A DNA stretch of 64,000 nucleotides, taken from NCBI GenBank assembly GCA_001003605.1, contig LCPL01000001.1:7976-71975 (forward strand). Direction: 5' to 3'. The DNA comes from Parcubacteria group bacterium GW2011_GWC2_48_17. Lineage in GTDB: Bacteria > Patescibacteriota > Minisyncoccia > Phycocordibacterales > UBA10002. The position numbers and the translations under genes are program-made. Below are positions 394 to 54,281 of this stretch, piece after piece. Every line of letters begins with the position of its first letter. Position 1 is the stretch's first letter. The notes under the pieces were generated by a model. The model was not told the origin of the DNA and did no database searches. It was given only the letters and a program-made list of their open reading frames with translations.

Positions 394-2985
394 TCAGAAA
401 GTCTCTGGATTCCAGAAATCATCTACTCTGTCGACTCCTTTGTCTGCTTTGGAACCCAAGAGCAAGGGCATGGGAGGATCCTTCTGTTTTGGTGCTGTCC
501 CTACGCTTGGGGACGGTACAACAGAGTCAACAGAGACAGTCTTTTTCCCGCCCTTTCTGATGTAGATCCTTTTTTGTTTTTGGGCCTCCCCGCGTTTAAT
601 GTGCATCCCCGTAACCGCGAGGTTAGTTTTTAATTCGTTTATTTTCTTCCCGAGTGCATTTGCCGTCTTTGGAAAATCAGGCTCCCGCTCAGGCTTGATG
701 TGTAGACCCTCTGCTACTTCAATAAGTGCATTCCGCAATTCTGTGGGCGTTCCTTCCCAATCTTCTCTGCCATCCATAAAGGTACGGAGGAGGACCGCTG
801 TTAGATTTTCAGCTAAGACCTCATCGTTCTGACTCGCGATGTTACTTCCATAGGCACTCAGAAACTCTTCCTTGGTGTATCCGAGTGCCTCCGCAATAGC
901 AGCGCCCCATCGCGTGAAGTCAGCCATTCGAGGCAGAGACGCTAATTCAATTGCAGGCTCTATCTGCATCGCCTTTTGCAGTACAGTGAAGATGCCCCCC
1001 AGTATGCTAGGCTGGTCCTTCTCGAATTCAGCGAGCAGGGCTTTCTCAGATTTTCTGTCTTCCTCACTGATTCGCTCCAATTCAAGCAGGATGCCTCGTT
1101 CCAGAATATCAGGTCTCGTCGCCACCTGATTGATACCGTTTAGGATTAGGACACGGCGGAAAGCGTATATGATGTCGTCATCATCAGTAAAGAGTTCACG
1201 CTTCGAGAAGCCATCCCCCGTAACCGCTTTACAAAGCGCATCGGAATCTCGGCCAGAAATACGAGATATATTGTCAAATACAATGCACCAGTGGTGGTCG
1301 AATATCTGAACCAACTCATTTTGGTCTCTCGGAAATCCTATCGTTTCGACTTCGGAGGGGTCTCCAATCTTCTTTAATAATCGGCAAAAGAATGTCTTCG
1401 ATGCTCCTTGAGCTCCATAAACAATCAGAATAGGATGAGGAATATTTGGAATAAAAGACGCGACTAACCACACCAGCAACAGAAGCCGATGCTTTCTATC
1501 AGCAACATTTAGATATTTGAGTAGAAGGGTTATATCTCCATCTTGAACGGGTTGACATTGCGCCTTTTGGTGGGAATAACGTCGAAAAAGAATAGGCGGA
1601 TTTGCGACAATCTCCCAGCTCGCCTTTGTAATTTTTACTGCACGCCATTCCGTGTCGGCGAGGTCATACCATATCGCGCCCTCGTGTTCCGTCAGTCGAT
1701 TCCACAGTTTGATTAAGGGACCGTCAAAATATGCCTTTCCTTCAAGGACCGTCAAGGCAGTTTTGAGAGCTTCGGTGTTCGGTGCTTTATGTCGAAGTTG
1801 CCAAAAGCGTCGGGCCAACCACCGCCGACACATTTTTGAACGACACGACCATACTTCCCGATGCGACCCCACAGTGAGCTGAAGGAAAGGATATTTATAC
1901 TGATTGTGGAAGAGGACAACTTTAGTCTCAGGGTCTTCAAGCACCATACGCACGATTACGTCGCTTTGAGATTCATGCGGTACTGCGACCTTCGTACCTT
2001 CTTCCGACTGTTTGCTTCCATATCCCTTATTTGCCAACTCTCTCGCAGCGCTTTTGAAGTCAGCCTTATGATTCAAGATGGCATACGCCGAGAACTTGGT
2101 ATAGCTTCTATCTGGCTCAAAGGGTGTACTCGATGAAAAGACATGAAGCAGACCGTTGCCATTGTAGTTTTCGGTCGCCGATATTCCGCCTTCTATCTTG
2201 CCAGGCCGCTTCCAGTATCTTTTCTCCCCGCATTGCCGTTCAATCTTCCAGCCAAGAGGTGCCAGTATCTCTTCCCAAGTGGCCCTAGTGTTGTAGTCAT
2301 CTCCAGGCCGATTAGAGTCAGGAAGTTGCGGCTTAGGATTGAATATCTTTTGTTCCTCTACTATCTCGTTAAGTACACGGGCAGTGTCCCAGAGTGATTT
2401 TCGTTGTTCTGGAGTAATTTCAGGTATATGCTCGAGGGACCCATTCAAGTGCTCATAGCCCTCTGTAGGCGGCTCTACAATGAATCCTCCTTCACCTCTC
2501 GTTTCTATGACTGCTTTTTTCTCCCCGCTTTCATCGAGACATCTCGCTAACGGGGTATTTCTCCCAATCTCCTTACTTCGATAGAGAAGGTGATATCCGT
2601 TGTTGATAGTTTTGGATAGAGGGAGGGTTTTTAAAAGCTCTAGGGCTTCCGCTGGCAGCAGTGATTTCCACGCTTCAAAAAACCCTTTCCTGACTTTCTC
2701 GTCAAAGTCTATGACCTCAAGATTCCCACTCACTCTTCCGCAGACAATTCCCCAACGCTTCTTGTTGGTCCAACTTGAGATCTCCGACTCATTAGGTAGT
2801 CGGCTTTGGTATTGCTTCCACCCATCACCATGATGCTTTTCACCGTCTACTAGCGGGAGCAAGCAGAGCCCGCAGGAGTTGATTAACTTCCGAACATACT
2901 GAATTATTTTAGGTTGTTCATCCATGACTTTCTCTATATTTAATTTTCGCGAGTAAGTCGAAGTACCTGACGAGTGTATTCGCAA
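394..2985 (-). CDS. Phage/plasmid primase-helicase. It has a Prim-Pol-like N-terminal region and a D5/P4-type P-loop NTPase C-terminal domain. An alternative start lies at Met21 (~2925).
   Basis: 863-aa ORF. Walker A motif GAQGASKT. Overall architecture matches P4-alpha/D5-type replicative primase-helicases. It sits next to a serine recombinase. Confidence 0.6.
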   Translation of the reverse strand: MRIHSSGTSTYSRKLNIEKVMDEQPKIIQYVRKLINSCGLCLLPLVDGEKHHGDGWKQYQSRLPNESEISSWTNKKRWGIVCGRVSGNLEVIDFDEKVRKGFFEAWKSLLPAEALELLKTLPLSKTINNGYHLLYRSKEIGRNTPLARCLDESGEKKAVIETRGEGGFIVEPPTEGYEHLNGSLEHIPEITPEQRKSLWDTARVLNEIVEEQKIFNPKPQLPDSNRPGDDYNTRATWEEILAPLGWKIERQCGEKRYWKRPGKIEGGISATENYNGNGLLHVFSSSTPFEPDRSYTKFSAYAILNHKADFKSAARELANKGYGSKQSEEGTKVAVPHESQSDVIVRMVLEDPETKVVLFHNQYKYPFLQLTVGSHREVWSCRSKMCRRWLARRFWQLRHKAPNTEALKTALTVLEGKAYFDGPLIKLWNRLTEHEGAIWYDLADTEWRAVKITKASWEIVANPPILFRRYSHQKAQCQPVQDGDITLLLKYLNVADRKHRLLLLVWLVASFIPNIPHPILIVYGAQGASKTFFCRLLKKIGDPSEVETIGFPRDQNELVQIFDHHWCIVFDNISRISGRDSDALCKAVTGDGFSKRELFTDDDDIIYAFRRVLILNGINQVATRPDILERGILLELERISEEDRKSEKALLAEFEKDQPSILGGIFTVLQKAMQIEPAIELASLPRMADFTRWGAAIAEALGYTKEEFLSAYGSNIASQNDEVLAENLTAVLLRTFMDGREDWEGTPTELRNALIEVAEGLHIKPEREPDFPKTANALGKKINELKTNLAVTGMHIKRGEAQKQKRIYIRKGGKKTVSVDSVVPSPSVGTAPKQKDPPMPLLLGSKADKGVDRVDDFWNPETF

Positions 2986-23922: not shown

Positions 23923-24497
23923 CCCGTGACTCTTGCGTTCCTTATATTTTTTAGGTATACTTTTTACCGGTTCGTCAAATCGTCAATCCAGCCAAACCCA
24001 CAAGAAAAAAAATGATAAGCAATAACGGCGTTTGTCCCAACTGCCAAAGAAGGCCCCTCAACGGCCTCAAGTGCGTGTACTGCAAGTATCAATCGAACGC
24101 TTCGCCTGTAATGAGCGTCATAGCCCATCGGTTTCAACAAGAACTGCAGGAACATAGGCGTCGGGCGGCGCGCGCCAAAATGCTTCCCTGGAACTAATCA
24201 GGAGAATCCTCATTGTACTTTGTAAGGCGTCGCGAGTGATGCGACGCCTTCTATTTTAGTGTATACTCTTATTTATTATAAAGCTTTAGGTGTCATCTTA
24301 TGAATAAGAAAGAAAAACAAGCCCGCAAAAAACAGCGTAAAAAACACGGCAAGAAGATATCGGTGCGTCATCGCTAAATCAGCTTGTTAGCTTTTTAGCA
24401 GGTTAGCTTGTTAGTTCTTTTATTCAGTTTGCTGTCGCATTACCTGTCGCTTTTTCCTTCTACTTTTTCTACTAACTACCTTCTACTTACTGTTTTC

Positions 24498-25157
24498 ATG
24501 ATTATTACCCATTTTGGCGGAGAATTTATCAAAGTGCAATTTGGCGACGTGGTGTTCGCGTTCAATCCGCCTTCCCGCGACTCGAAACTAAAAACCGCGC
24601 GTTTTGGAGCCGATATCGCACTCATAAGCGCGAACCACCCGGATTTTAACGGGGTAGACATCGTGACTCACGGCGACCATAGACCGTTTGTCATTTCCGG
24701 TCCCGGAGAGTATGAAATAAGAGGCATCGTTGTTCGAGGTTTTGCCACCGAGTCCGATTACGGAACGGATGGGAAGAGTAAGCGCATAAACACCGTCTAC
24801 ACGGTAGCGCTTGAGGGAATGAAGCTCTGTTTCCTCGGAGCGCTTTCCTCCGGCGAACTTCCCGACGTCTTGAAGGAAGAGCTGGATGAGATAGATATTT
24901 TGTTCATCCCAATCGGCTCTATCGGCGTTCTATCTCCTTCTTCGGCAAACAAGCTCGCGGTTGCCCTCGAGCCGCGTCTTGTCATTCCAATCCATTTTGC
25001 TGGCATTGGGGATAAGAACGCACTCAAACAGTTTTTAAAAGAATCCGGTGAGGAGAATTCGTCATCTTCCGGACGAGCGTTGGACAAGCTGACGCTCAAG
25101 AAGAAGGACCTTGAAGGGAAAGAAGGCGAAGTCGTAGTACTAGCTGCTAGCTTCTAG
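24498..25157 (+). CDS. MBL-fold metallo-hydrolase (UPF0173-like)
   Basis: MIITHFGGEFIKVQFGDVVFAFNPP...DIALISANHPDF...IPIH resembles small MBL-fold hydrolases. The start was moved to Met 24498 because the upstream part of the ORF is repeat-derived. Confidence 0.45.
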   Translation: MIITHFGGEFIKVQFGDVVFAFNPPSRDSKLKTARFGADIALISANHPDFNGVDIVTHGDHRPFVISGPGEYEIRGIVVRGFATESDYGTDGKSKRINTVYTVALEGMKLCFLGALSSGELPDVLKEELDEIDILFIPIGSIGVLSPSSANKLAVALEPRLVIPIHFAGIGDKNALKQFLKESGEENSSSSGRALDKLTLKKKDLEGKEGEVVVLAASF

Positions 25158-25228
25158 CTGTCAGGTTCTAGTATGGCGGATGAGGTCCTTCCTAGAAGCT
25201 AAAACCTAAAACCTAAAACCTAGAACCT

Positions 25229-25549
25229 ATGCTGTTTCTTATCTCCAAATTACAGCGGAAGCCGGAACGCGTTCGCAAAAAAATCGCGTTCGTCGCATCT
25301 GCGATTATAACAGGCATCATAGTAATTATCTGGCTCACTTCTTTAAGTGTCGCTACTCCCGAAACCTCTTCCAAATCCGCTTTGAGCGGAGATGACGTCG
25401 GTCCATTTCAGGCACTTACCGAAAACTTAAGCGTGTTCTTTTTAGACGCGTCCGAAACAATCCAAACGGCGGTAAGCGCCTTTTCCGGGGCCTCAGACAA
25501 AGCTGCGCCGCCTCAAGAAAAAGAGGTTGCCCCGCCTGTCACGCAGTAA
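25229..25549 (+). CDS. Small hypothetical membrane protein (1 TM)
   Basis: 106-aa ORF with one TM (ASAIITGIIVIIWLTSLSV). Preceded by an (AAAACCT)x3 repeat. Confidence 0.35.
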   Translation: MLFLISKLQRKPERVRKKIAFVASAIITGIIVIIWLTSLSVATPETSSKSALSGDDVGPFQALTENLSVFFLDASETIQTAVSAFSGASDKAAPPQEKEVAPPVTQ

Positions 25550-28181: not shown

Positions 28182-28448
28182 TTGATGATACAATTCTACT
28201 ACACGTACGTTTTATACTCAGAGTTCGATAAGAAACTATACGTTGGTTGTACACAGAATTTGCAGGAGAGATTTAAGGCGCACTCGAAAGGTGAGGTGCC
28301 TGCTACCAGGAACCGTCGACCGCTAAAGTTACAATATTACGAAGCATGTCATGATTTGAGAGACGCTCGTCATCGTGAACAGTATCTCAAAACAACTCAC
28401 GGCCGCCGGTTTATCAGGCAGCGCCTTAAATCATATTTAACGGGGTGA
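28182..28448 (+). CDS. GIY-YIG nuclease family protein (small, stand-alone)
   Basis: YTYVLYSEFDKKLYVGCTQNLQERFKAH is the GIY...YVG motif pair. Confidence 0.7.
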   Translation: MMIQFYYTYVLYSEFDKKLYVGCTQNLQERFKAHSKGEVPATRNRRPLKLQYYEACHDLRDARHREQYLKTTHGRRFIRQRLKSYLTG

Positions 28449-28502: not shown

Positions 28503-29027
28503 ATGTTCTCCGACCCCTCACAATGCATTGAACAATTTGACCTCCAAAGCGGCTCGCGCGTGGCCGACCTTGGCGCGGGCACCGGCGCGTTCGCGATTGC
28601 CGCTGCAAAAGCGGTGGGCGAGGCCGGCAAGATTTACGCCGTAGAAGTACAGAAGGGCCTTTTGGAGCGGCTCAAAAGCGAGGCCCGCGCGGCGCGCGCG
28701 CATAATGTGGAGGCGCTGTGGGGAGACATTGAACGCGTGCAGGGTACACACCTCAAAGACGCCTCCATTGACGCCGCCGTTGCGTCAAATGTGCTGTTTC
28801 AGGTTGAAGATAAAAACGGTTTTGTAACGGAAACGAAACGTATATTAAAACCAGGCGGCAAAGCGCTTCTCATAGACTGGACGGATTCTTGGAATGGTAT
28901 GGGTCCGCACAAGACCCAGGTAGTCACCGAAAACGCCGCTCGCGAGCTTTTTGAAAAGGCCGGCTTTCAGTTCGTAAAGAAAATCGACGCCGGAGAGCAC
29001 CACTATGGGTTAGTATTTAGAAAGTAG
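28503..29027 (+). CDS. Class I SAM-dependent methyltransferase
   Basis: VADLGAGTGAFAI (motif I) ... KPGGKALLIDW (post-I/II). Confidence 0.6.
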   Translation: MFSDPSQCIEQFDLQSGSRVADLGAGTGAFAIAAAKAVGEAGKIYAVEVQKGLLERLKSEARAARAHNVEALWGDIERVQGTHLKDASIDAAVASNVLFQVEDKNGFVTETKRILKPGGKALLIDWTDSWNGMGPHKTQVVTENAARELFEKAGFQFVKKIDAGEHHYGLVFRK

Positions 29028-29050
29028 AGGGTAGGTGGTAGAAAAAGACA

Positions 29051-29401
29051 ATGAAGGAATGGAATTACAAGAATCTTATTGTGTGGCAGAAGGCAATTGA
29101 TGTGGCCGTAAAAGTCTATCGTCTCACTGACACTTTCCCCAAAAACGAACAATACGGACTGATGTCTCAAATTCGCAGAGTAGCGTCCTCAATTTCAGCA
29201 AATATCGCGGAAGGTAGTCGGAGAAAAGGACCGAAAGACAGAGTCCATTTTTTTGTCATGGCGTATGGTTCTGGGGCTGAATTAGAATCCCACTTGGAAT
29301 TAGCTAAGCGTCTTTCGTTAGTATCTGAAGAGTCCCTAAAAGAAATGCCGGCGCTTTTAGACGAGGTGATGAAAATGTTAAACCGTCTCACCAGTGTATA
29401 A
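29051..29401 (+). CDS. Four-helix-bundle protein (23S rRNA intervening-sequence protein family, the same family as DGR Avd), copy 1
   Basis: KNLIVWQKAIDVAVKVYRLTDTFPKNEQYGLMSQIRRVASSISANIAEG...GSGAELESHLELAKRL is the canonical family signature. Confidence 0.75.
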   Translation: MKEWNYKNLIVWQKAIDVAVKVYRLTDTFPKNEQYGLMSQIRRVASSISANIAEGSRRKGPKDRVHFFVMAYGSGAELESHLELAKRLSLVSEESLKEMPALLDEVMKMLNRLTSV

Positions 29402-29476
29402 TTTTTAACCTGCTTGGGTTATACTTGAGTCGTTTCTCTTGCTACCTTCTACCCTCTACTTTCTACCTTCTAAACC

Positions 29477-30736
29477 ATGAATTCCTTCCAAATCATCGTC
29501 CTCGGTATCTTCGCCTTCTTCATTGTCGCCGGACTCGCGGCAATATCCCTCGTCAAGCAAAACGCCGGAGCGGAAGTCATATCGCTCACGATGTGGGGAA
29601 GCGTTGATAAAGACTTGGTTGAGAGTATCATCGGTAGCACCGTAAACAGCGAAACGCTCAAGGTTTCCTACAGGGAGATTCCGGAATGGTCGCTTGATAA
29701 AGAGATTGTAGAGGCGCTTGCGGTGCGTCGCGGTCCCGATATGCTTCTCCTGCCGCTTCCGCTTCTCACTCGCTACAAAGACAAACTGTTAGTAATCCCA
29801 TACAGCACTTATCCGGAACGCACATTCAAGGACACATTTATGCAGGAAGGAGACCTTTTCTTATCAAAGAATGGCATAATCGCTTTCCCTTTTTTACTTG
29901 ACCCGATGGTCATGTATTTCAATCGGGATTTGCTTGATGAAGTGAAAAAGCCCCAGGCGCCGAGATTTTGGGATGAATTTATCTCGCTCGCAAGGGACCT
30001 TACTTTGCGCGATGAGTATGGCAATATCTCGCGCAGCGCCGTCGCACTGGGCGAATATCGGAATATAAACCACGCGCGCGAGATTCTGGCGACGCTTTTT
30101 ATGCAGAGCGGAAACCCCATCGTCGCCAAAGGAGATTCCGTAAATAAGGTTACGCTGGACAAAAGTGGCACCTCTCCAGTGCTAGATTTTTACACTGAAT
30201 TCGCGAATCCGCAGAAACCCGTATATTCTTGGAATCGCTCGCTTCCGAGCGCGAGAAGCGCGTTTCTAGCCGCGAACCTAGCAATATACTTCGGTTTTGG
30301 GAGCGAATATGATGGACTGCGCAAAGGGAATCCCAATCTTGATTTTGATATCGCGCCATTTCCGAGGCCCCGAGACGCGAGTATCGCCATCACCTATGGC
30401 AAGCTCACTGGAGTGTCAATTCTCCGTACGGCTTCCAATACTGGAGTGGCCCTTCAAGTCGCTCTAACGCTCGTTAGTCCGAGGGCTCTAAACATACTTC
30501 GCTCCAAAACCGGGTTCCCGCCAGTTCATAGAGGTCTTCTTACTGCAAAGCCGACGGATGCTTTTGGAGCCGTTATGTACGATTCCGCTTTCATGGCGCG
30601 CGGATTTATTGACCCAAACCCGGCAGTATCCGCGGGAATATTCAGGAACATGATAGAATCGGTTACAAGCGGCAGAGCGCGGAGCAAAGAGGCGCTCCAA
30701 AAGGCGAATACGGAAATGAAAGAAGCGTTCCGGTAG
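29477..30736 (+). CDS. Membrane-anchored extracellular solute-binding protein (ABC-transporter substrate-binding family, tentative)
   Basis: N-terminal TM anchor. MalE-like substrate-binding-protein features (LTMWGS..., DMLLL, ...). Confidence 0.4.
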   Translation: MNSFQIIVLGIFAFFIVAGLAAISLVKQNAGAEVISLTMWGSVDKDLVESIIGSTVNSETLKVSYREIPEWSLDKEIVEALAVRRGPDMLLLPLPLLTRYKDKLLVIPYSTYPERTFKDTFMQEGDLFLSKNGIIAFPFLLDPMVMYFNRDLLDEVKKPQAPRFWDEFISLARDLTLRDEYGNISRSAVALGEYRNINHAREILATLFMQSGNPIVAKGDSVNKVTLDKSGTSPVLDFYTEFANPQKPVYSWNRSLPSARSAFLAANLAIYFGFGSEYDGLRKGNPNLDFDIAPFPRPRDASIAITYGKLTGVSILRTASNTGVALQVALTLVSPRALNILRSKTGFPPVHRGLLTAKPTDAFGAVMYDSAFMARGFIDPNPAVSAGIFRNMIESVTSGRARSKEALQKANTEMKEAFR

Positions 30737-30842
30737 AGACAAATACCAATCTGCAAATGTATACCAATTTTCCAATACCTGCGAATAAGAGTTAAGAATC
30801 CGAATTGGTAGGTATTTGTAGATTGGAATGGATTAGTTATCA

Positions 30843-31415
30843 TTGGTATCTGTCATGTCTCGTTTTTTCCCAATCTCAATACTTTCCACTCTTGTTCTAC
30901 TTGGAACGGTCATCCCGTTCGCTCATGTCGCGAACGCGCAACAACAAACGAACCCGCCAGGCGAAACCAAATACGACGATGCGTATGTCCCGTGCGGGTA
31001 CGCTGATACAAAAGACAAACAAGGGAAACCGGCAGAACAAACAATCACCTTACCCGATGGCACTACAAAAACTATCCCCGGAGACGGCGTCGTAGACAAC
31101 CCCTGCAAATTCACGCACATCATTGAGCTTGCAAAAAAGCTCATCATGGGTTGGATTATCGCCGGTGTTATAATTGCGACTATGGGTTTCGCGTACGCAG
31201 GGCTTCTCTACATTACCGCCATGGGCTCATCGGAGAAAGTGAGCCACGCGCACTCAATTTTCATAAAAACCTTCTGGGGATTCGTGTTCATGCTTTCCGC
31301 GTGGCTTATAGCGTATACTATGGAGAGCATTTTCCTTTCCAAGGAGGCAAAGTGCAATTCGTTTTTGACCACTCCCGAAGATAGAGTAAAATTGGGGTGT
31401 CCAACGACCCCATAA
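30843..31415 (+). CDS. Secreted two-TM pilin-like protein, paralog 1 (TrbC/VirB2-like architecture)
   Basis: Signal peptide. Two hydrophobic helices are separated by a short charged loop (..AMGSSEKVSHAHS..). Shares the core with six downstream paralogs. Confidence 0.45.
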   Translation: MVSVMSRFFPISILSTLVLLGTVIPFAHVANAQQQTNPPGETKYDDAYVPCGYADTKDKQGKPAEQTITLPDGTTKTIPGDGVVDNPCKFTHIIELAKKLIMGWIIAGVIIATMGFAYAGLLYITAMGSSEKVSHAHSIFIKTFWGFVFMLSAWLIAYTMESIFLSKEAKCNSFLTTPEDRVKLGCPTTP

Positions 31416-31420
31416 GAAAT

Positions 31421-31562
31421 CGGGGAGAACATGACACCCAAAGCACAGTGTCCAAAAACCCAAACAAAGCACAGTGTGTCAAAAAAACAAACAAGTCCGG
31501 TTTGTGTTTTGAAAGTTTGTGCAGTTTGTTTGGGCTTTGTGTACTGTGCTTTGGTAAGTTTA
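31421..31562. repeat. Long imperfect palindrome, CA-rich arm / TG-rich arm (~60-nt arms). Second copy at 54775-54915.
   Basis: The left arm cccaaagcacagtgtccaaaaacccaaacaaagcacagtg... is almost G-free. The right arm ...cagtttgtttgggctttgtgtactgtgctttgg is its approximate reverse complement. Copy 2 shares caaagcacagtacacaaag...ccggtttg.... Confidence 0.5.
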
Positions 31563-31584
31563 AAACAGGTAATTAAGCCAACTT

Positions 31585-32007
31585 ATGTCTTTCATTGAAA
31601 AAGTGTGCCATTCGTTTAGCAAAGTACCACAAATGGCAGTGCATCTGGGCTGGGGCGCTTTTCTCATGCTCTTTCTCACGCCGCAATCAGCCTTTGCGAC
31701 ACCATGTCCCGAAGGAAGACTCTGCAATCCCATCAACTTTCCCAATCTTACCGCGTTCCTGCTTGAAATTGTAAATATAGCAATCCAGTACGGCGCGCTC
31801 CTTATCGTATTTTTCATCGTCTTCGCCGGTTTTAAATTCGTTACGGCGCAAGGGAACAGCGAGAAGGTGAGTGAGGCGAGAAAAATGTTTACGTGGATTG
31901 TTGTCGGCGCCTTCGTGCTTCTTGGCGTCTATGTGATTAAGGCCGCCATCTGCGGCTCCATAGAACAGCTTGGGGTCACGAACGCGTGCGGATTGACTTC
32001 GCAATGA
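31585..32007 (+). CDS. Secreted two-TM pilin-like protein, paralog 2
   Basis: ...ALLIVFFIVFAGFKFVTAQGNSEKVSEARKMFTWIVVGAFVLLGVYVI... is the same helix / charged-loop / helix core. Confidence 0.45.
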   Translation: MSFIEKVCHSFSKVPQMAVHLGWGAFLMLFLTPQSAFATPCPEGRLCNPINFPNLTAFLLEIVNIAIQYGALLIVFFIVFAGFKFVTAQGNSEKVSEARKMFTWIVVGAFVLLGVYVIKAAICGSIEQLGVTNACGLTSQ

Positions 32008-32026
32008 AAGCAGTACTTAGTAGTTA

Positions 32027-32182
32027 GTAGTAGAGGACTTACGCGGTTGACTGAATTCTCCCTTAATAAAGGGAGCACTGCCGCCTTCGGCAGGAGGGAT
32101 GTTACAACCCCCGCCTCGCCGACTCGGCACCCCCTTTACTAAGGGGGACACACTTCGACCGGATTCCAAACGCGTAAGTCCT
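32027..32182. mobile_element. MITE-like element, copy B (TIR AGGACTTACGCG), with a hairpin-rich interior
   Basis: aggacttacgcg at 32027 and cgcgtaagtcct at 32171-32182. The interior has ctcccttaataaagggag and cccccctttactaaggggg stem-loops, and is related to 37640-37870. Confidence 0.5.
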
Positions 32183-32209
32183 AAGTAGTAGATTAATAGA
32201 CAAAGCAAA

Positions 32210-32593
32210 TTGATGAAAACTATAAGCCACAAAACAAATAGATTTTCTTTGCTACCCTCTACCTTCTACCTTCTACCATCTGCTTTCTTCTACCTTCTAC
32301 CTTCTGTTTCCCTTGCCAACGACTCCATCAAAATCTTTGATACTCCCAATAAGCTCACGTTCACAGACCTCGCGGGGCGGCTTGCAGGCGTTGGGAATAC
32401 AATCATAACCTTTCTCGTCGGCGTTGCTCTCGTTCTTTTGATTTGGGGCGCTTTCAAGTACATCCGTGCCGCCGGCGACTCGGAAAAGCTTGCCGAGGGA
32501 CGTCGAGTGGCCGTCTATGGCATCATTGCCTTGTTTCTAATGCTTTCTTTCTGGGGATTTGTTATGATTATCAAGAAGAGCTTGTTCGGGTAA
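32210..32593 (+). CDS. Secreted two-TM pilin-like protein, paralog 3. Its N-terminal hydrophobic region is encoded by CTACCTTC repeats.
   Basis: ...TFLVGVALVLLIWGAFKYIRAAGDSEKLAEGRRVAVYGIIALFLMLSFWGFVMII. There is no in-frame alternative start downstream of the repeat region. Confidence 0.45.
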   Translation: MMKTISHKTNRFSLLPSTFYLLPSAFFYLLPSVSLANDSIKIFDTPNKLTFTDLAGRLAGVGNTIITFLVGVALVLLIWGAFKYIRAAGDSEKLAEGRRVAVYGIIALFLMLSFWGFVMIIKKSLFG

Positions 32594-32659
32594 TACCAAT
32601 CTGCGAATGTGAACCAATCTACGAATACCTGCTAATAAAACCTACTAATAAACACGCCA

Positions 32660-33130
32660 ATGGCTAGACAAATTTTCTCAATGCTCCTCATAACGCTGAT
32701 GTTGCTGTCTGGAATGATGATGTTTGCGACTCCCACGTTCGCGATATTGTGCGCCTACACGGACGGCGGCACGGTTGAGGTACCTGGGACAGTGTGTCCT
32801 GATGGAAGCACACCTGTTGGCGATCCATCTGGTGACGGCGGCAGTCAAATAACCACCTTCGCTGGTTTGCTAAAACACATCAACGCACTTCTCAACCTCG
32901 TTGTTCCGTTCCTCGTGGGTCTGGCTGTTTTTGTTATAATCTACGGAGTCTTCAAGTACGTTTTCCACGCGGCAGATGAGGAGAAGCGGACGGAAGCAAG
33001 ACTCTTCATCGTCTGGGGAGTAATCGGCGTCTTCTTCATGCTCTCCATTTGGGGGCTCGTGAATATCCTTGTCAACACCGTTCCTCTGCAAAAAAAGCCG
33101 CCGAAGGTGGAGTCGGTGTTTCCTAAGTAA
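32660..33130 (+). CDS. Secreted two-TM pilin-like protein, paralog 4
   Basis: Signal peptide and a Cys-containing N-domain. Core: ITTFAGLL...VPFLVGLAVFVIIYGVFKYVFHAADEEKRTEARLFIVWGVIGVFFMLSIWGLVNIL. Confidence 0.5.
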   Translation: MARQIFSMLLITLMLLSGMMMFATPTFAILCAYTDGGTVEVPGTVCPDGSTPVGDPSGDGGSQITTFAGLLKHINALLNLVVPFLVGLAVFVIIYGVFKYVFHAADEEKRTEARLFIVWGVIGVFFMLSIWGLVNILVNTVPLQKKPPKVESVFPK

Positions 33131-33178
33131 ATACCAATATACGAATGGGAACCAATCTACGAATACCTGCGAATAAGA

Positions 33179-33312
33179 TAGGACTTACGCATTTCGTCAT
33201 TTTCTGTCATTCCCGCGCAGGCGGGAATCCATGCCTTGAAATAACACTCTGGATTCCCGTTCCCCGCCTTCGCGAGGACAAGCTTCACGGGAATGACACC
33301 AAATACGACTTT
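33179..33312. mobile_element. MITE-like element, copy C (left TIR TAGGACTTACGC, degenerate right end)
   Basis: taggacttacgcattt at 33179. The interior has gtcattcccgcgcaggcgggaatcc and ctggattcccg cores homologous to copy A. The ORF-track ORF 33145..33339 is the translation of this repeat. Confidence 0.45.
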
Positions 33313-33335
33313 TTAGAAGCTAATTTCTTAACCTC

Positions 33336-33905
33336 ATGAAGAAAACATACGCGTTTGCGGCAATCTTTGTGTTACTTTTCGTTCTGTCCGCTTCTTTACT
33401 GCCCGGTATTACATTTGCGAACCATGTGTGTATCGGCGATCCTAATTGGGACGAGGACAATGATTTTGCCGAAGGCCATGCTTGTGTCCCGGCCAGCAAT
33501 AGCGGCGGTGGCGGCAAAATAACCACCTTTGAAGGTTTGCTCGGCAAACTAAGTTCGGCCGTCAACTCGCTCGTGCCGTTCATAATAGGACTCGCGGTTT
33601 TTGTCATTATCTGGGGGATTTTTAACTACATCGTGCGTGCCGCAGATGAGGAGAAACGGGCGGATGCGAAAAAGTACATTATCTGGGGAATCGTTGGGTT
33701 GTTTTTTATGCTCTCCATCTGGGGCTTCGTGAACATCCTCTTAAACAGCATCAACCTTGATAGGACCATCAAGACAAGCGATATTCCAAGAGTTCCAAGC
33801 ATTGGCGGGATAGACGGGACAGATGGCGGCACCCCCAGCGGACGGGACAATGGAAGAGATGGCACAGATGACTGTGATCCATCTATTAAGGATTGTCAGC
33901 AATAA
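33336..33905 (+). CDS. Secreted two-TM pilin-like protein, paralog 5, with a G/D-rich C-terminal tail
   Basis: KITTFEGLLGKLSSAVNSLVPFIIGLAVFVIIWGIFNYIVRAADEEKRADAKKYIIWGIVGLFFMLSIWGFVNILLNSINL, then GGIDGTDGGTPSGRDNGRDGTDDCDPS. Confidence 0.5.
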   Translation: MKKTYAFAAIFVLLFVLSASLLPGITFANHVCIGDPNWDEDNDFAEGHACVPASNSGGGGKITTFEGLLGKLSSAVNSLVPFIIGLAVFVIIWGIFNYIVRAADEEKRADAKKYIIWGIVGLFFMLSIWGFVNILLNSINLDRTIKTSDIPRVPSIGGIDGTDGGTPSGRDNGRDGTDDCDPSIKDCQQ

Positions 33906-33924
33906 TTATGAGTGTACCGCCACT

Positions 33925-34281
33925 ATGTTGTTTAGCATAGGAAAGAAAAACACAGCTCTCATTTGGTACGGCCTTCTTTATTTTTTTCTCGCGCCACTCA
34001 CTTTGTTCGCGCAGTCTACTGACCTGCCGAAAGACGCAACCGAGCTCCTCAACCGCATAAGCACATTCATCATAAACCCCATCATCTATCTCCTTTTCGC
34101 CGCCGCGTTTGTAATTTTCGTTTGGGGACTCGTGCAATTCGTGGCGCATCTTGACAACGAAGAGGCGAGAAGCACGGGGGGTAAGCACATGATTTGGGGC
34201 ATCATCGGCATGGTCATCATGGTCAGCGTCAACGGAATAATCTACATAATCCAAAACACCATTCTTCAGCTGGGAAGCTGA
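33925..34281 (+). CDS. Two-TM pilin-like protein, paralog 6 (divergent)
   Basis: Start moved to Met 33925 (the 33823 start overlaps paralog 5). ...IIYLLFAAAFVIFVWGLVQFVAHLDNEEARSTGGKHMIWGIIGMVIMVSVNGIIYII. Confidence 0.4.
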   Translation: MLFSIGKKNTALIWYGLLYFFLAPLTLFAQSTDLPKDATELLNRISTFIINPIIYLLFAAAFVIFVWGLVQFVAHLDNEEARSTGGKHMIWGIIGMVIMVSVNGIIYIIQNTILQLGS

Positions 34282-34338
34282 AGAATAGCTGCTAGCTGTT
34301 AGGTGCTAGGTTCTAGGAAGGAAAAAGAAAAGAAATAG

Positions 34339-34638
34339 ATGCATGAAAGCCGAAAACTAACCGCTTCTGCCCTGCCTTTGACCGATAACGCCACTAATGC
34401 TAGCATAAGAACCATGAATACAATCGTTTTGAAAACAGCTGAATATCAAGAACTAAAGACCCGCGCTGATGCATACGATAGGTTGGTATTTGCCGTGCGT
34501 GAAGAGATTTTTTCGCCACCTCCGACCCGAAACCGCGCCAAGATTATTTCTGAATTAAAAAAGACAAAACGCTATAACAATAAATTTCTTGAGAGTCTCG
34601 CTCGCGGTTTGAAGCGTTCGTCGTATTTCACCTCATAG
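34339..34638 (+). CDS. Putative antitoxin partner of the RelE/ParE toxin (assigned by position only)
   Basis: 99-aa ORF ending 8 nt before the RelE-like toxin gene. No motif recognised. Confidence 0.35.
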   Translation: MHESRKLTASALPLTDNATNASIRTMNTIVLKTAEYQELKTRADAYDRLVFAVREEIFSPPPTRNRAKIISELKKTKRYNNKFLESLARGLKRSSYFTS

Positions 34639-34645
34639 ATTTTCC

Positions 34646-34894
34646 ATGAAAATACTCCCGCTTCATTCGGAAATCGTCCGGTATATTAAAGCGCGAGGTT
34701 TGCTAAAACGGTTTGAAAAGCAGTCAAGACTTTTCGTCGCTAATTTAAATCATCCGAGTCTTGAAATGGGATTGCTTGAACCAAGGCATTTGCGCATTTT
34801 TAGTTTTCGCCTCAACCGGAAGTACCGAGCGATTTTCATTTTTCAAGACAGGGAGACGATTGAGGTGATTGATATCAATAATCACTACCAATAA
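34646..34894 (+). CDS. RelE/ParE-family type II toxin
   Basis: ...HPSLEMGLLEPRHLRIFSFRLNRKYRAIFIFQDRETIEVIDINNHY matches the RelE/ParE C-terminal pattern (HP.L....L.....s.R+...YR.i....+..i.v..I..H). Confidence 0.6.
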   Translation: MKILPLHSEIVRYIKARGLLKRFEKQSRLFVANLNHPSLEMGLLEPRHLRIFSFRLNRKYRAIFIFQDRETIEVIDINNHYQ

Positions 34895-35025
34895 GAAGAA
34901 TAGCTGCTGGCTGTCCGGCGCTAGGTTCTAGCCGGATAAAGGAGAGGAAGATAGCTTCTAGCTGCTAGGTTCTAGCTTTTAGGAAAGAAATCGAAAAACA
35001 ACTTCTAGATAAGCGCCACACATGT

Positions 35026-35394
35026 ATGACTATCACAAAATCCTACAAAGACCTGATTGTGTGGCAAAAAGGAGTTGAACTTTCCGTGCTTGTATATGAA
35101 CTGACTGAAAAGTTTCCCAATGAAGAGAGATATGCGCTTACTTCACAAATGAGACGAGCTGCCGTTTCCATTCCATCAAATATAGCCGAAGGGCGTTGTA
35201 GAAGTACAAAAAAGGATTTTTGCCAGTTTCTGCATATTGCCCTCGGTTCTGCGGCAGAGCTTGAAACACAAATAGAAATTGCAAAGCGAATATCAAAGAC
35301 CTCCAATATCTCATATACAACCATAGAAGCCCTGCTTACCGAAGTTATGAAAATGCTCAATGCTCTTATCTCCAAACTAGAAGCCAATGCCTGA
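35026..35394 (+). CDS. Four-helix-bundle protein (IVS/Avd family), copy 2
   Basis: KDLIVWQKGVELSVLVYELTEKFPNEERYALTSQMRRAAVSIPSNIAEG...LGSAAELETQIEIAKRI. Confidence 0.75.
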   Translation: MTITKSYKDLIVWQKGVELSVLVYELTEKFPNEERYALTSQMRRAAVSIPSNIAEGRCRSTKKDFCQFLHIALGSAAELETQIEIAKRISKTSNISYTTIEALLTEVMKMLNALISKLEANA

Positions 35395-35563
35395 CAGCGC
35401 CAGCACCTTCTCTCGATTCTGCTTCTTCTAGAACCTAGCAGCTAACACCTATCCCTTGCTATCCACACCCCCCCCTTGCGCGTGCGGGAATATAGGATAG
35501 AATAGTGCGTATTAATAGGATTTTCCAAATAGGTCGTATTACTAATTATTTTATAAGTGCTTT

Positions 35564-45090: not shown

Positions 45091-45199
45091 AATAGCAGGT
45101 AGATGATAGAAAGTAGAAGGTCAAAATAGATTGTAGAAGGTAGATGGTAGAAGGTAAGAAGAAACAGTCTACTAGCTACTTTCTACCAACTAATTTTTT

Positions 45200-46694: not shown

Positions 46695-47810
46695 ATGACT
46701 CTAGTTTTATTTCTCATCATTCTCGGTGCGCTCATCTTCGTGCATGAGCTCGGACACTTTATCTCCGCGAAAAAAGCCGGAATTCGCGTTGATGAATTCG
46801 CGCTTGGATTTCCGCCGAGGGTACTTGGAAAGAAAATAGGAGAGACAGAGTACAACCTCAATCTCATTCCATTTGGAGGATATGTGAAAATCTTTGGCGA
46901 AGACGGCGACGAAGACGCAGATAAACGCGGATTAGGAACGCAGATAAGCGCGGATAAAGAAAGACGCTTCACCTCAAAACCTCGGTGGGTGCAGGGAATA
47001 GTCCTTGCTTCCGGCGTCCTCGGCAATATAGTTTTCGCGTGGCTACTTGTGTCGATAGGCTTCATGTCGGGTGTTCCATCGGCAATCAACGGGCGATACG
47101 CCGCTGACGTGCGAAATCTCGAGCTTATGGTCACTTCAGTACTCCCGGACTCTCCGGCTTATACAGCAGGGCTTCATTCCGGCGATGTAATCACAGCAAT
47201 CGAGGAAAACGGTAATCGATTTGAAGGCACCGATGCGACAGTGGCAGGAAACTTTATCGGCGCCAGTACGGATAAGCTATCCGTCTTTTACAAACGCGGA
47301 AAAGAAGCTGGAAGCGTAGTCGTACTGCCGAAAGATGGAATTGTGGAGGGGAAACACGCCATAGGGGTTGGCCTAGACACTATAGGTGAAGTGCGCTTCG
47401 GCTTTTTCCGAGCTTTTTTTGAAGGAGCTCTAATGACATGGGACATTACTCGCGAAGTCACTGTGGGCCTAGTCGGATTTTTGAAACAAGCCGTCACTTT
47501 GCAAGCGGACTTAAATTCCATTACCGGCCCCTTGGGTATTGCGGGACTCGTTGGGGAGGCGCGCGTTTTAGGAGTCATCTATCTTCTGTCTTTCACCGCA
47601 TTTATCTCCATTAACCTCGCTGTCATCAATCTTCTGCCAATTCCGGCGCTAGACGGAGGTCGTCTTCTCTTTTTAGCGATTGAAGGCATCACCCGAAGAT
47701 CAATCCCCGCAAAGTTAACTCGAACAGTAAATACGGCCGGCTTCATACTCCTCATTCTCTTTATGGTTTTTATTACATATCGGGATATTGTGAAATTAGT
47801 TAGTAGCTAG
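46695..47810 (+). CDS. rseP: RIP site-2 zinc metalloprotease RseP-like (M50 with PDZ)
   Basis: VHELGHF (HExxH). C-terminal NLLPIPALDGG. Confidence 0.75.
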   Translation: MTLVLFLIILGALIFVHELGHFISAKKAGIRVDEFALGFPPRVLGKKIGETEYNLNLIPFGGYVKIFGEDGDEDADKRGLGTQISADKERRFTSKPRWVQGIVLASGVLGNIVFAWLLVSIGFMSGVPSAINGRYAADVRNLELMVTSVLPDSPAYTAGLHSGDVITAIEENGNRFEGTDATVAGNFIGASTDKLSVFYKRGKEAGSVVVLPKDGIVEGKHAIGVGLDTIGEVRFGFFRAFFEGALMTWDITREVTVGLVGFLKQAVTLQADLNSITGPLGIAGLVGEARVLGVIYLLSFTAFISINLAVINLLPIPALDGGRLLFLAIEGITRRSIPAKLTRTVNTAGFILLILFMVFITYRDIVKLVSS

Positions 47811-47895
47811 TAGCAAGTAGAAAGTAGAAAGTAGCGTGCTACTATTTTCTTATCCGTAATTCGTATATCGGTACTTATTTGTACTCCGTAAACCT

Positions 47896-52414: not shown

Positions 52415-54133
52415 ATGCTACAAAGATTTCTTAAATTGTTTAGTTCACGTAGAGTCGCTCTGCATGGGAAGAAGGAAATCAATCCTGATGAGATATTTCT
52501 TGATTCTAGCAATCTGCCGCAGTTTGACAGGCACCAATTCGAGGGCCGCCTTGAGCGTCCTATAGCTCGCCGCACCATTTTCATTTTAGGTGGCGTATTT
52601 TGCTTGGCAATGCTTCTGGTTCTCTCAAAGACCTTTTCACTTCAAATAATGGAAGGAGACCGGTACGCAAATCAAAGCGCGCAAAATCGCCTGCGCCACA
52701 GCCTGATTTTTGGCTCGCGCGGCGTGTTCTATGACAGGAACGGAACATTACTCGCATGGAATGTCATTGATGACGCTAAACCTGAATTTTCGAAGCGCAA
52801 ATATCTGGAGCAAAATGGACTGTCGCACGTCGTAGGATTTATAAAATATCCTTCAAAGGATAAAGCAGGGTTCTATTATAAAGTTGATTTTGAAGGACTT
52901 GATGGAGCGGAAAAGTATTACAACGAATATGTCGCGCCGCAACATGGAATCAGAATCGTTGAAACAGACGCTCATGGGAATATTCAGTCGGAGAGCGTGT
53001 TAAAGCCGCCAAAAGATGGAGCAAACATTACTCTAACTATCGACGCGCGCCTTCAGAGTAAGCTTCACGAGTTAATGGAAGGTCTAGCGAAGGAACGCGG
53101 TTTCAACGGAGGCGCCGCAGTCATAATGGATGTTCAAAACGGCGAGCTTCTCACCATGGTGAGCTTTCCAGAGTACGATTCACAAGTTCTTACCGATGGT
53201 AGCGATGAAGACGCCATAAAAAAGACGCTTGCTGACCCAAAGACTCCATTCCTCAATCGAGCTACAAGCGGACTATACGCGCCAGGCTCTATCGTTAAGC
53301 CGTTCATAGCACTTGCTGCGTTGGAAGAGGGAATAATAACGCCAGAGAAGGAGATAGTAAGCACAGGCAAGATATCAGTTCCGAACCCATTCGACCCGAG
53401 CAAGCCGAGTGTTTTTAAAGATTGGAAAGCGCACGGCGCTGTTGATATGCGCAAAGCATTGGCAGTTTCATCCGACATATATTTCTACGAAATAGGCGGG
53501 GGGTTCGAAGAACAAAAAGGACTTGGTATCGGGAGCATCGAAAAGTATATGCGTCTATTCGGCTTCGGCGAGGAGCCAGGAGGAAACGATTTCTTTGGTG
53601 AAGCCGGAGTCATCCCAAATCCCAAGTGGAAACGCGCGAATTTTAACGGTGAAGCGTGGAATCTTGGCAATACCTACCATACGTCGATTGGGCAATATGG
53701 ATTTCAGGTAACTCCCTTGCAGGTGGCGCGCGGAGTTGCCGCGATTGCGAATGGCGGAAAGCTTTTAGAACCTCGGCTTGTAGAGGAAAAAGAAATTCCG
53801 CCGTCATATGCGGTGATTCCTATCAAAACTTCCTCTTTCGGGGTTGTGAAAGAAGGTATGCTTGGCGCCGTAACTTTAGGTGGCACGGCAAGTGGACTTT
53901 CCATTCCCAACATAAGCGTTGCCGGAAAGACTGGAACAGCGGAGCTAGGAACCTTAAAAAAACTAGTCAACTCATGGGTAGTGGGATTCTTTCCATATGA
54001 AAAACCTGCGTTTGCGTTTGCAATCATAATGGAAAAAGGCCCGCGTGATAACACCATAGGCGCGACTTTTGTGGCTAGGCAGCTATTCGAGTGGATGAGC
54101 GTGTATACGCCGGAATACCTGCGGAGTCAGTAA
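52415..54133 (+). CDS. mrdA: Penicillin-binding protein 2 (elongasome transpeptidase)
   Basis: SxxK (GSIVKPF), SxD/N (VSSDIYF), KTGTA. N-terminal TM. Lies in the mreBCD block. Confidence 0.75.
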   Translation: MLQRFLKLFSSRRVALHGKKEINPDEIFLDSSNLPQFDRHQFEGRLERPIARRTIFILGGVFCLAMLLVLSKTFSLQIMEGDRYANQSAQNRLRHSLIFGSRGVFYDRNGTLLAWNVIDDAKPEFSKRKYLEQNGLSHVVGFIKYPSKDKAGFYYKVDFEGLDGAEKYYNEYVAPQHGIRIVETDAHGNIQSESVLKPPKDGANITLTIDARLQSKLHELMEGLAKERGFNGGAAVIMDVQNGELLTMVSFPEYDSQVLTDGSDEDAIKKTLADPKTPFLNRATSGLYAPGSIVKPFIALAALEEGIITPEKEIVSTGKISVPNPFDPSKPSVFKDWKAHGAVDMRKALAVSSDIYFYEIGGGFEEQKGLGIGSIEKYMRLFGFGEEPGGNDFFGEAGVIPNPKWKRANFNGEAWNLGNTYHTSIGQYGFQVTPLQVARGVAAIANGGKLLEPRLVEEKEIPPSYAVIPIKTSSFGVVKEGMLGAVTLGGTASGLSIPNISVAGKTGTAELGTLKKLVNSWVVGFFPYEKPAFAFAIIMEKGPRDNTIGATFVARQLFEWMSVYTPEYLRSQ

Positions 54134-54281
54134 GTAGCAAGTAGAAAGTAGCAAGTAGCAAGCAGGCAGTATCGAATTTTCTTTTTCTACCTTCTACCCT
54201 CTACTGTCTACCTTCTGCTTGTGCGTTGACTTACTCTCAAAAACCCGCTACAATCTTGAGGTTTAGCAAATCTAACGAATA

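Follow-up and report, generated by a model that had tools for sequence, protein, structure and literature searches.

Two small genes in a 64,000-nt stretch of DNA from Parcubacteria group bacterium GW2011_GWC2_48_17 (hereafter the window), designated 4HB-1 and 4HB-2, encode four-helix-bundle proteins of the PF05635 family and are both bracketed by inverted arrays of 7-nt units. We propose, with a probability of roughly 0.7, that each gene is carried as cargo by a discrete cassette of the intervening sequence (IVS) type, ~430–510 bp in length, which lives in mRNA operons and is not part of a diversity-generating retroelement (DGR). The cassette would be laid out as an array of ~5 heptamers, the PF05635 open reading frame (ORF) and an inverted array, as in the ORF-bearing IVS of 23S rRNA. 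Knowledge of IVS elements and of the S23p/PF05635 ORFs within them dates back to about 1990; PF05635 itself is an orphan family of very large size. 'IVS-type cassettes' had been one of the possibilities raised in the original prediction on this DNA, and our analysis supports and sharpens it: terminal inverted heptamer repeats plus a PF05635 ORF make up the same build in a 23S rRNA-embedded homologue of Azospirillum lipoferum and in the Coxiella IVS (PMC4990558). The window sequence is also contained in contig DOPE01000037.1 (78.7 kb) of the groundwater metagenome-assembled genome (MAG) GCA_003514705.1, and recurs in Rifle and other aquifer metagenomes. In a scan with one genome per species, its nearest relatives were Parcubacteria/Patescibacteria MAGs.

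Two PF05635 genes and their inverted heptamer arrays

The two ORFs were found exactly at the coordinates originally given (Table 1), and the PF05635 signature claimed for them was recovered with E-values of 6e-37 for 4HB-1 and 1.7e-39 for 4HB-2 (126.5 and 134.7 bits, respectively, cut-off 33.8). TIGR02436 gave 117.8 and 130.5 bits against a cut-off of 24, so that both proteins belong to these families. The two proteins share 54% identity, and no third copy of the gene was detected in the window by tblastn. Sequence matches in the PDB at E ≤ 0.01 were limited to two S23p-type pentamers, 2GSC (E = 4e-26) and 2RLD, both with 5 chains in the deposited entry; no other chain, and hence no structure of the accessory variability determinant (Avd) of DGRs, was matched at this threshold. 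The PF05635/S23p family assembles as homopentameric rings (PMC4990558), and, from the sequence likeness to 2GSC and 2RLD, 4HB-1 and 4HB-2 may form a homopentameric four-helix-bundle ring as well. The proteins of the PF05635 set are basic. The host genes of cassette 1 are a methyltransferase gene upstream and a solute-binding-protein (SBP) gene downstream.

Short inverted repeats had been predicted to bracket each gene. Such repeats are indeed present and non-random, whereas their true extent is longer than had been stated and the coordinates reported for them were off by 1 to 18 nt (true starts at 29024, 29442, 34920/34964 and 35428, instead of 29025, 29440, 34925/34970 and 35410, respectively). 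The arms of copy 1 (29005–29048 versus 29435–29478) are 44 nt long and 82% complementary, and those of copy 2 (34950–34975 versus 35428–35453) are 26 nt long and 88% complementary, with an additional pair of 12 nt (34920–34931 versus 35428–35439, 100% complementary). Local alignment of the 100-nt flanks yielded scores of 48 and 37 for copies 1 and 2, compared to 15.9 ± 2.6 and 14.0 ± 2.1 for base shuffles, respectively. This flank inverted-repeat score had a median of 14 when computed for every one of the 62 ORFs in the window, and the two PF05635 genes ranked first and third.

The arms turned out to be arrays with a 7-nt period, a feature that had gone unnoticed, with GTAGNNN or CTAGNNN units upstream and the complement downstream. 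In copy 1 the units are GTAGAGG GTAGGTG GTAG upstream and CTACCTT CTACCCT CTACTTT CTACCTT downstream, and in copy 2 they are TAGCTTC TAGCTGC TAGGTTC TAGCTTT TAG upstream with the complement downstream. Owing to the 7-nt period, TAG appears in all three frames, on the sense strand upstream and on the antisense strand downstream. The core of the left arm of cassette 1, GTAGAGGGTAGGTGGTAG, begins at the TAG stop (29025–29027) of the upstream methyltransferase gene. In cassette 2 the inner right arm has decayed, and a second, outer arm (35425–35453) now pairs with the left arm. The predicted folds of both full cassettes contained the terminal stem in the minimum free energy and centroid structures (z = −2.0 and −3.1, respectively). 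Both cassettes thus share with an IVS a long complementary terminal stem enclosing the element, as judged from the arms and the predicted folds, and a PF05635 ORF in the loop with tandem heptamers before it. In an Rfam search at gathering and permissive thresholds, the arrays and cassettes met chance-level miRNA matches only.

The same architecture in related loci

The one-genome-per-species scan returned 80 loci with relatives 56–87% identical, mostly from Patescibacteria, which contained 85 genes, 78 of them with complete flanks. The flank inverted-repeat score of these 78 relatives had a median of 28, compared to 19 for flanks paired across different loci, and scores of at least 30 were reached by 33/78 relatives versus 3/78 mismatched pairs. 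The polarity of the ORF is fixed relative to the arms: an upstream TAG array, defined as at least three TAGs at 6–9 nt spacing on the sense strand within 160 nt upstream, was present in 64 of the 78 relatives (~1.3 expected from a background density of 0.098 per kb), and a complementary array occupied the upstream position in 3/78. The rule of at least three motifs at 6–9 nt spacing gave 25/78 for downstream arrays, which is an undercount and for which the inverted-repeat and lag-7 measures are better; the lag-7 autocorrelation was 0.40 upstream and 0.35 downstream versus ~0.27, with lag-7 and lag-14 peaks on both sides. TAGs were spaced by 7 nt in 164 cases, by 8 nt in 46 and by 9 nt in 27. 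The number of units per array had its mode at 5 (30/78), followed by 4 (19/78), and the median distance from the end of the array to the start codon was 13 nt.

In Patescibacteria the upstream array, with TAG every 7 nt, puts a stop into each of the three frames, and in most cases one of its TAGs serves as the stop codon of the gene before it. TAG was found in all three frames in 57/78 relatives versus 4/78 on the opposite strand. The stop codon of the upstream neighbour was TAG in 59/73 cases, compared to 70/295 for other ORFs (p = 2e-19), and in 42/73 it was the first array unit itself, indicating that the array usually provides the stop of the upstream host gene. The PF05635 gene was co-oriented with its upstream neighbour in 73/77 and with its downstream neighbour in 69/78 cases (baseline of adjacent ORFs, 82.5%), and the median gaps to these neighbours were 41 and 23 nt, respectively.

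In 10/75 related loci the cassette lies directly upstream of a PrgI-like gene in an operon resembling that of a type IV secretion system (T4SS), where the usual order is VirB6-like, c2, 4HB, PrgI-like, c4 and VirB4-like. One of these loci (L032) carries three cassettes at successive junctions of the operon. This position in the relatives echoes the pilin-cluster location in the window.

Gain, loss and decay of the cassette

Arrays and ORF are gained or lost as one unit at stop/start junctions. A Taylorbacteria MAG, Parcubacteria GW2011_GWA2_49_9 and a third MAG (L025–L027) harbour copies with 82–87% identity to copy 2. The flanks of these copies have no similarity to anything in the window, and their DNA homology with copy 2 extends from the left array to the right array and no further. 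Two Nostoc plasmids (L179 and L180), whose backbones are 89–92% identical, carry different cassettes at different junctions of the same three-gene operon (proteins 43% identical; GTCAGGA versus GGGAAAA arrays). The reciprocal empty sites consist only of TAG-GTT-ATG or TAA-TTT-ATG and thereby form exact filled/empty pairs, indicating that arrays and ORF come and go jointly, and do so exactly between the stop and the start codon.

The junction between the methyltransferase and SBP genes, at which 4HB-1 resides, was followed in a metagenome scan with the downstream SBP, in which the neighbourhood gyrA–methyltransferase–SBP–pilin was found in 47 loci. It was empty, with an overlapping ATGA stop/start, in three loci, and shorter than 30 nt in five others. 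The cassette decays to truncated and ORF-less hairpin forms: in one locus (L147) both arrays surround a truncated gene that has lost its first ~69 codons, and in three loci the junction holds an ORF-less TAG/CTA hairpin. Two loci (L127 and L128) bear a copy-1 ortholog with 76% identity, and L121 has a different four-helix-bundle gene (56% identity); the SBP of its genome is nearer to the window SBP than that of L127. Another locus has a GIY-YIG gene there, and in still others the junction is filled by hairpins from unrelated families of repeats.

Strong purifying selection acts on the protein, and conservation of the left array of cassette 2 goes well past that of the ORF's synonymous sites, which are saturated. 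The ratio of nonsynonymous to synonymous divergence (dN/dS) of cassette-2-type genes was 0.02–0.11 with dS saturated, and the left array was nearly invariant among four cassettes with saturated synonymous sites. The low dN/dS together with an array that is invariant despite saturated dS indicates that protein and left array of cassette 2 are both constrained.

Plasmid homologues and a copy inside a 23S rRNA gene

A tblastn search against plasmids gave 39 records, mostly cyanobacterial, of which sixteen were inspected. All 16 had heptamer arrays on at least one side, and 11/16 had clear inverted arrays with inverted-repeat scores of 29–63. The heptamers varied by locus (GTAGGGA, GGGAAAA, GGGAACA, GGTGACA, GTCAGGA, GGAGATA, CTGCCCT, and AAAAGCT with ~15 repeats), indicating that the 7-nt period is a family-wide feature whereas TAG is a speciality of Patescibacteria. 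The three-frame stop was rejected as a universal property, as the heptamers of Cyanobacteria and Azospirillum (GGGAAAA, GGGAACA, GGACAGA and others) are rich in purines and in many cases contain no stop codon.

Insertions on the cyanobacterial plasmids were located between cas6 and cas4 (two loci), between cmr2 and cmr3 (one locus) and between two ribonucleotide reductase subunit genes (one locus). '23S rRNA IVP' is listed among CRISPR-linked genes (PMC10910872), which is probably explained by such insertions into cas operons. On plasmid AZO_p2 of A. lipoferum (L181) the homologue is embedded in a 23S rRNA gene, with inverted GGACAGA/GGACGGA heptamers on either side of it (inverted-repeat score 47). 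In the Coxiella IVS the terminal stem measures 28 bp, the S23p ORF is preceded by three to four GACAGAT heptamers, RNase III cuts at the first repeat, and the ORF is decaying and probably untranslated (PMC4990558). Taken together, these loci suggest that the rRNA IVS is one habitat of a wider cassette type, in which inverted arrays of ~5 heptamers surround an ORF and sit flush between stop and start. Such a cassette type would account for '23S rRNA IVP' genes inside cas and other operons, and would tie together several heptamer-repeat phenomena that were reported separately and left unexplained.

Proposed mechanism and comparison with known elements

Read-through from the host operon would transcribe the cassette, as can be judged from the co-orientation and from spacers too short to hold more than the array. 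The predicted folds suggest that the arms would pair into a long stem, by which the ORF is looped out and the host stop and start are brought together again, much as the stem of an IVS in rRNA does no more than lengthen a helix. Judging from the rRNA IVS, the cassette stem would be a likely substrate of RNase III, and cleavage would leave the insertion nearly harmless to the host RNA. That the cassette consistently sits flush between stop and start may be due to targeting, or to selection alone.

The 23S rRNA IVS of Coxiella burnetii, Leptospira and A. lipoferum resembles the cassette in size (0.4–0.5 kb), in a PF05635/S23p ORF in sense to the host transcript, in terminal inverted repeats giving a long stem, in tandem heptamers right before the ORF (GACAGAT in Coxiella, GGACAGA/GGACGGA in A. 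lipoferum), and in a patchy distribution with decay to ORF-less forms (PMC4990558). On the other hand, the host RNA here is an mRNA operon and not helix 25 or 45 of 23S rRNA, the cassette fits flush between a stop and a start codon, its heptamers contain TAG and give three-frame stops, and its ORF is under strong purifying selection, unlike the decaying Coxiella ORF. RNase III excision is known for the rRNA IVS and is assumed here by analogy. Because it is not located in 23S rRNA, we class the cassette as a variant of the IVS and keep it apart from true members.

Gene-less heptamer arrays have been reported from Geobacter metallireducens (PMC2700814) and, with TAACTGA units, from Beggiatoaceae, Cyanobacteria and Bacteroidetes (PMC4679880). 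They too are intergenic tandem 7-nt units, typically 3–6 in number, that often overlap the upstream stop or abut a start codon and give three-frame stops, and those of Geobacter form inverted pairs ~100 nt apart, like the ORF-less hairpins at 54125–54216 and 45093–45196 of the window. In those reports the arrays are not linked to PF05635, whereas here they are the termini of a gene cassette, of which the ORF-less copies look like deletion derivatives. Miniature inverted-repeat transposable elements (MITEs) with their autonomous parents, and repetitive extragenic palindromes with the mosaic elements built from them (REP/BIME), likewise have terminal inverted repeats, which the cassettes possess (those of L179 are ATCAGGAG...CTCCTGAT-like), are intergenic, and comprise many short ORF-less copies next to few ORF-bearing ones with matching termini. 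The cassette differs from them in that neither a transposase nor a REP-associated tyrosine transposase (RAYT) is encoded, no duplication of the target site was evident, its termini have an internal 7-nt period and insertion is exactly at stop/start junctions. An incomplete literature search found no report linking PF05635 genes with flanking heptamer arrays other than for the Coxiella IVS, and none for genes outside rRNA.

A wider conjecture, which we advance tentatively and consider doubtful, is that PF05635 proteins and inverted heptamer arrays are one co-evolving unit across bacteria, with the 23S rRNA IVS as its rRNA-resident subset. The pentamer would recognise its own array, with about one heptamer per protomer and lineage-specific heptamers, and the cassette would act as a self-recognising ribonucleoprotein that targets, or is tolerated only at, stop/start junctions and rRNA hairpin loops, while ORF-less hairpins would be non-autonomous derivatives serviced in trans. 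This idea is derived from the homopentameric rings, the five-unit mode, the position of the array before the start codon, the lineage-dependent sequence, the matching ORF-less arrays (each of the two window cassettes has ORF-less arrays of its own type elsewhere in the window), and the finding that all five Avd protomers touch one RNA stem-loop, with flipped bases in inter-protomer crevices (10.1101/2023.10.23.563531). The span of unit numbers across arrays, from 2 to 15, weighs on the notion of one heptamer per protomer. On this view the TAG arrays described here and the paired heptamer 'regulator sites' of Geobacter (PMC2700814) would be such non-autonomous derivatives, and perhaps also the TAACTGA arrays (PMC4679880). 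Cyanobacterial short tandemly repeated repetitive (STRR) heptamers are likewise intergenic heptamer arrays and possibly belong here too.

Evidence against the cassette and rival explanations

Several observations weigh against the interpretation as a discrete IVS-type cassette. No rRNA is present in the window, both copies lie between protein-coding genes, and the location that defines an IVS is therefore lacking; likewise, no rRNA gene harbours any of the 78 relatives, none of them is free of ORFs in both flanks, and no match to large-subunit rRNA was obtained from the 8 loci in which one gap was large. Neither within nor beside the cassettes was a transposase or recombinase detected that would provide a mobility mechanism, for which an enzyme acting in trans is conceivable, and the two filled/empty junctions of the Nostoc plasmids and the boundaries of L025–L027 showed no convincing target-site duplication. 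No strain-level empty sites were found, as look-ups with the exact sequences of both four-helix-bundle proteins, the SBP and the downstream pilin gave the same arrangement only, and the empty sites of the copy 1 junction come solely from more distant orthologs. The copies in unrelated contexts are old, with saturated synonymous sites, and ten relatives share one syntenic position, indicating that many copies are long-term residents rather than recent insertions. About ten further arrays of similar kinds are present in spacers of the window with no gene between them, so that arrays outnumber genes and some may be independent elements; several of these are non-complementary and fold no better than shuffles. 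Finally, arm mismatches comprised 60 G.T versus 48 A.C on the sense strand, with no G.U bias that would specifically favour pairing at the RNA level, and these data are explained by a terminal repeat at the DNA level, or by two arrays of binding sites for a protein, as well as by an RNA stem.

The periodic and imperfect arms (82–88% complementary) might be taken for accidental simple-sequence matches in AT-rich spacers, but the shuffles (scores of 48 and 37 far above 15.9 and 14.0), the ranking within the window (median 14) and the recurrence of the same architecture in 78 plus 16 independent loci refute a chance origin, to which we give practically no credence. It is unlikely, though less so, that the arrays are an independent genome-wide intergenic repeat, either hairpin- or MITE-like or composed of regulator-binding sites, at which PF05635 genes merely lie or preferentially land. 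The gene-less arrays of the window would agree with this, as would the CGAAT arrays and CACAAAG palindromes that fill the same methyltransferase/SBP junction in relatives, the paired inverted five-heptamer arrays of G. metallireducens, which are putative regulator sites with no gene between them (PMC2700814), and the TAACTGA arrays before start codons in Beggiatoaceae (PMC4679880). However, PF05635 genes are accompanied by arrays far over background (64/78 and 16/16), and the homology of cassettes in unrelated contexts takes in the arrays and stops there. The Nostoc empty sites are free of arrays, which therefore arrive with the gene, the truncated gene between both arrays in L147 shows decay from cassette to hairpin, and the ORF-less arrays of the window match the arm types of the resident cassettes with up to 92% identity. 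Worth serious consideration, although the odds are against it, is a domesticated operon regulator that the host keeps and that is not purely selfish, in which the pentamer would bind the transcript arrays, control its own translation and affect processing or coupling of the flanking genes. A purely functional analogue is trp RNA-binding attenuation protein (TRAP), which binds (G/U)AG repeat RNA as a ring-shaped homo-oligomer; its RNA leader likewise has one UAG per repeat at fixed spacing just upstream of the start, whereas its fold and family are unrelated, its ring is 11-fold and not 5-fold, and its period is 5 nt and not 7. Such a role would be consistent with the strong purifying selection, the conservation of arrays beyond synonymous sites, the basic proteins, the T4SS-like operon position kept in 10 diverse genomes, the arrays ending a median of 13 nt before the start, their five-unit mode matching a homopentamer (PMC4990558; 2GSC and 2RLD with 5 chains), and the contact of five Avd protomers with one RNA stem-loop (10.1101/2023.10.23.563531). 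Against it stand unit numbers from 2 to 15, patchy presence at orthologous junctions with frequent decay, and the probably untranslated S23p of Coxiella (PMC4990558), and binding of the arrays is postulated by analogy.

The original prediction also raised an orphan Avd as a possibility. In this reading both proteins would be accessory DGR subunits whose reverse transcriptase (RT) and template reside elsewhere in the genome, and they would help to diversify nearby pilin or surface-protein genes. DGRs are common in CPR (candidate phyla radiation) genomes, the wider PF05635 family includes Avd, and the genes lie in or beside a cluster of T4SS-pilin paralogs, which had been regarded as suggestive. 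Avd (PF22296, NF033474; PDB 4DWL) is a homologous small, basic four-helix-bundle protein forming a pentameric barrel, and its models do match weakly; however, NF033474 gave 25.5 and 34.4 bits for 4HB-1 and 4HB-2 against a cut-off of 80, and PF22296 gave 25.1 and 28.5 bits against a cut-off of 40, and, as described above, no PDB chain besides 2GSC and 2RLD was matched. The statement that the window has no RT proved right for the window, to which the search was confined, as no RVT family occurred among the genes called over 3.5–64 kb (precomputed Pfam) and ORF 394..2985 is a Prim-Pol. The same applies to the absence of a template/variable repeat (TR/VR) pair: a check of the window for repeat pairs with A-specific mismatches found none. 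In the self-comparison of the window no pair longer than 58 nt had more than 53% of its mismatches on A or T of one copy, the sole pair above that share being a 55-nt array copy with 12 mismatches (0.67), and the pilin paralogs are 63–74% identical with unbiased differences. Across 75 related loci no partner gene recurred besides the T4SS-like operon genes, and no RT-like neighbour did so either. In contrast to Avd, heptamer arrays border the window genes, which are squeezed in between genes of unrelated kinds, with no adjoining RT, TR/VR or target gene, and homologues occupy junctions such as cas6/cas4 and cmr2/cmr3. Within the window the orphan-Avd reading is close to refuted, and we consider it very improbable overall; the location beside pilin genes resembles an insertion site and not a DGR target. 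PF05635 genes of this kind should not be taken as signs of a DGR in annotation.

Further arrays and other repeats of the window

The coordinates of both cassettes and of the ORF-less arrays are listed in Table 1. The ORF-less arrays match the arm types of both resident cassettes. When six of them were folded, two gave good hairpins and four were no better than shuffles, and the notion that every ORF-less array is a hairpin was dropped.

Table 1. Cassette components and ORF-less heptamer arrays, in window coordinates
Feature	Position	Strand	Description
4HB-1	29051..29401	+	116 aa; PF05635/TIGR02436 four-helix bundle, '23S rRNA IVS protein', S23p type; pI 9.4
4HB-2	35026..35394	+	122 aa; PF05635/TIGR02436; NF008911 cut-off also reached; nearest solved structure 2GSC
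Left arm, cassette 1	29005..29048	+	Five TAG heptamer units (29011–29041); core GTAGAGGGTAGGTGGTAG
Right arm, cassette 1	29435..29478	+	CTACCTTCTACCCTCTACTTTCTACCTTCTA; extends to ATG (29477) of downstream SBP gene
Left arm, cassette 2	34946..34986	+	ATAGCTTCTAGCTGCTAGGTTCTAGCTTTTAG; five TAG units
Decayed inner right arm, cassette 2	35377..35413	+	Overlaps 3' end of ORF; aligns with intact arm CTAGAAGCTAGAACCTAAAAGCTAGAACCTTCTC of L025–L027
Outer right arm, cassette 2	35425..35453	+	CTTCTAGAACCTAGCAGCTAACACCTATC; pairs with 34950–34975
ORF-less hairpin, PBP2/greA spacer	54125..54216	+	GTAG array, ~20-nt loop, CTAC array; right arm 92% identical to cassette-1 right arm
ORF-less TAG/CTA array hairpin after mreB-like gene	45093..45196	+	Fold z-score −3.1
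ORF-less CTAG-type arrays	25135..25233	+	Right array (CTAGAAGCTAAAACCTAAAACC...) resembles right arm encoding the C-terminus in cassette-2-type elements; no strong hairpin predicted
CTAC heptamer array	32243..32305	+	82% identical to cassette-1 right arm; read as N-terminal signal-peptide-like part of pilin ORF
TAG array followed by non-complementary CTAC array	24380..24498	+	Upstream of metallo-beta-lactamase-fold gene
Solitary GTAG heptamer array	47794..47838	+	After M50 peptidase gene
Extra cassette-2-type TAG array	34280..34334	+	Directly 3' of pilin gene; direct repeat (78% identity) with 34895–34949
Second direct copy of the 55-nt TAG array	34895..34949	+	Immediately 5' of cassette-2 left arm

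The direct repeats at 34280–34334 and 34895–34949 bracket two small ORFs (34339–34894), a putative toxin-antitoxin-like pair, the second of which has a weak, sub-threshold HigB/RelE-like match. This module looks as though it had been inserted into, or had duplicated, a cassette-2-type array. In ORF 32210–32593, translation of the CTAC array at 32243–32305 gives the hydrophobic segment LLPSTFYLLPSAFFYLLPSVSLA at the N-terminus of a T4SS-pilin paralog; to judge from the sequence, the array may have been co-opted as the signal peptide. In a check of ATG starts only, no other in-frame ATG was seen after the array before residue ~109.

A small GIY-YIG gene lies at 28182–28448, between gyrA and the methyltransferase gene, with a 10-nt inverted repeat (CCCCGTTAAA at 28156–28165 and TTTAACGGGG at 28436–28445). 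It is missing from the contig of a closely related strain (L004, 5870–6050), where a periodic CTAATTT-type hairpin is found instead, and in L159 (2142–2387) a GIY-YIG gene occupies the methyltransferase/SBP junction, which holds 4HB-1 in the window. Their occurrence at shared junctions indicates that small selfish genes of two families use the same spacers.

Other repeat families were also observed. Long self-complementary elements of CACAAAG/CTTTGTG units are located at 31436–31573, 54768–54905, 11479–11582 and 59888–59984 (two copies 85% identical), and this family also occupies the methyltransferase/SBP junction in three relatives (L122, L125 and L146). A 58-nt repeat, AATACCAATCTGCGAATG...CGAATACCTGCGAATAAG, stands behind the SBP gene and two pilin paralogs (30742–30799, 32592–32649 and 33130–33187), and periodic CGAAT/ATTCG hairpins related to it were found at the methyltransferase/SBP junction in five relatives. 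The 38-nt perfect-stem palindrome TTTTAGCAAACACTCACGGCCGTGAGTGTTTGCTAAAA occurs three times (22368–22405, 49168–49205 and 49811–49848); two of these copies flank a PaaX-like gene (49200–49823), which for this reason ranked second in the flank inverted-repeat test.

A mobile-element/defence-type cluster at 394–16000 contains Prim-Pol (394–2985), GmrSD-like (4043–6073) and N6/N4 DNA methylase plus ResIII helicase genes (12010–15989), with an NYN-domain gene farther along. A HepT/MNT toxin-antitoxin pair is located at 43070–43937. The sole Rfam family in the window is the LOOT RNA RF03000 at 7940–8064, with 80 bits versus a gathering score of 46.

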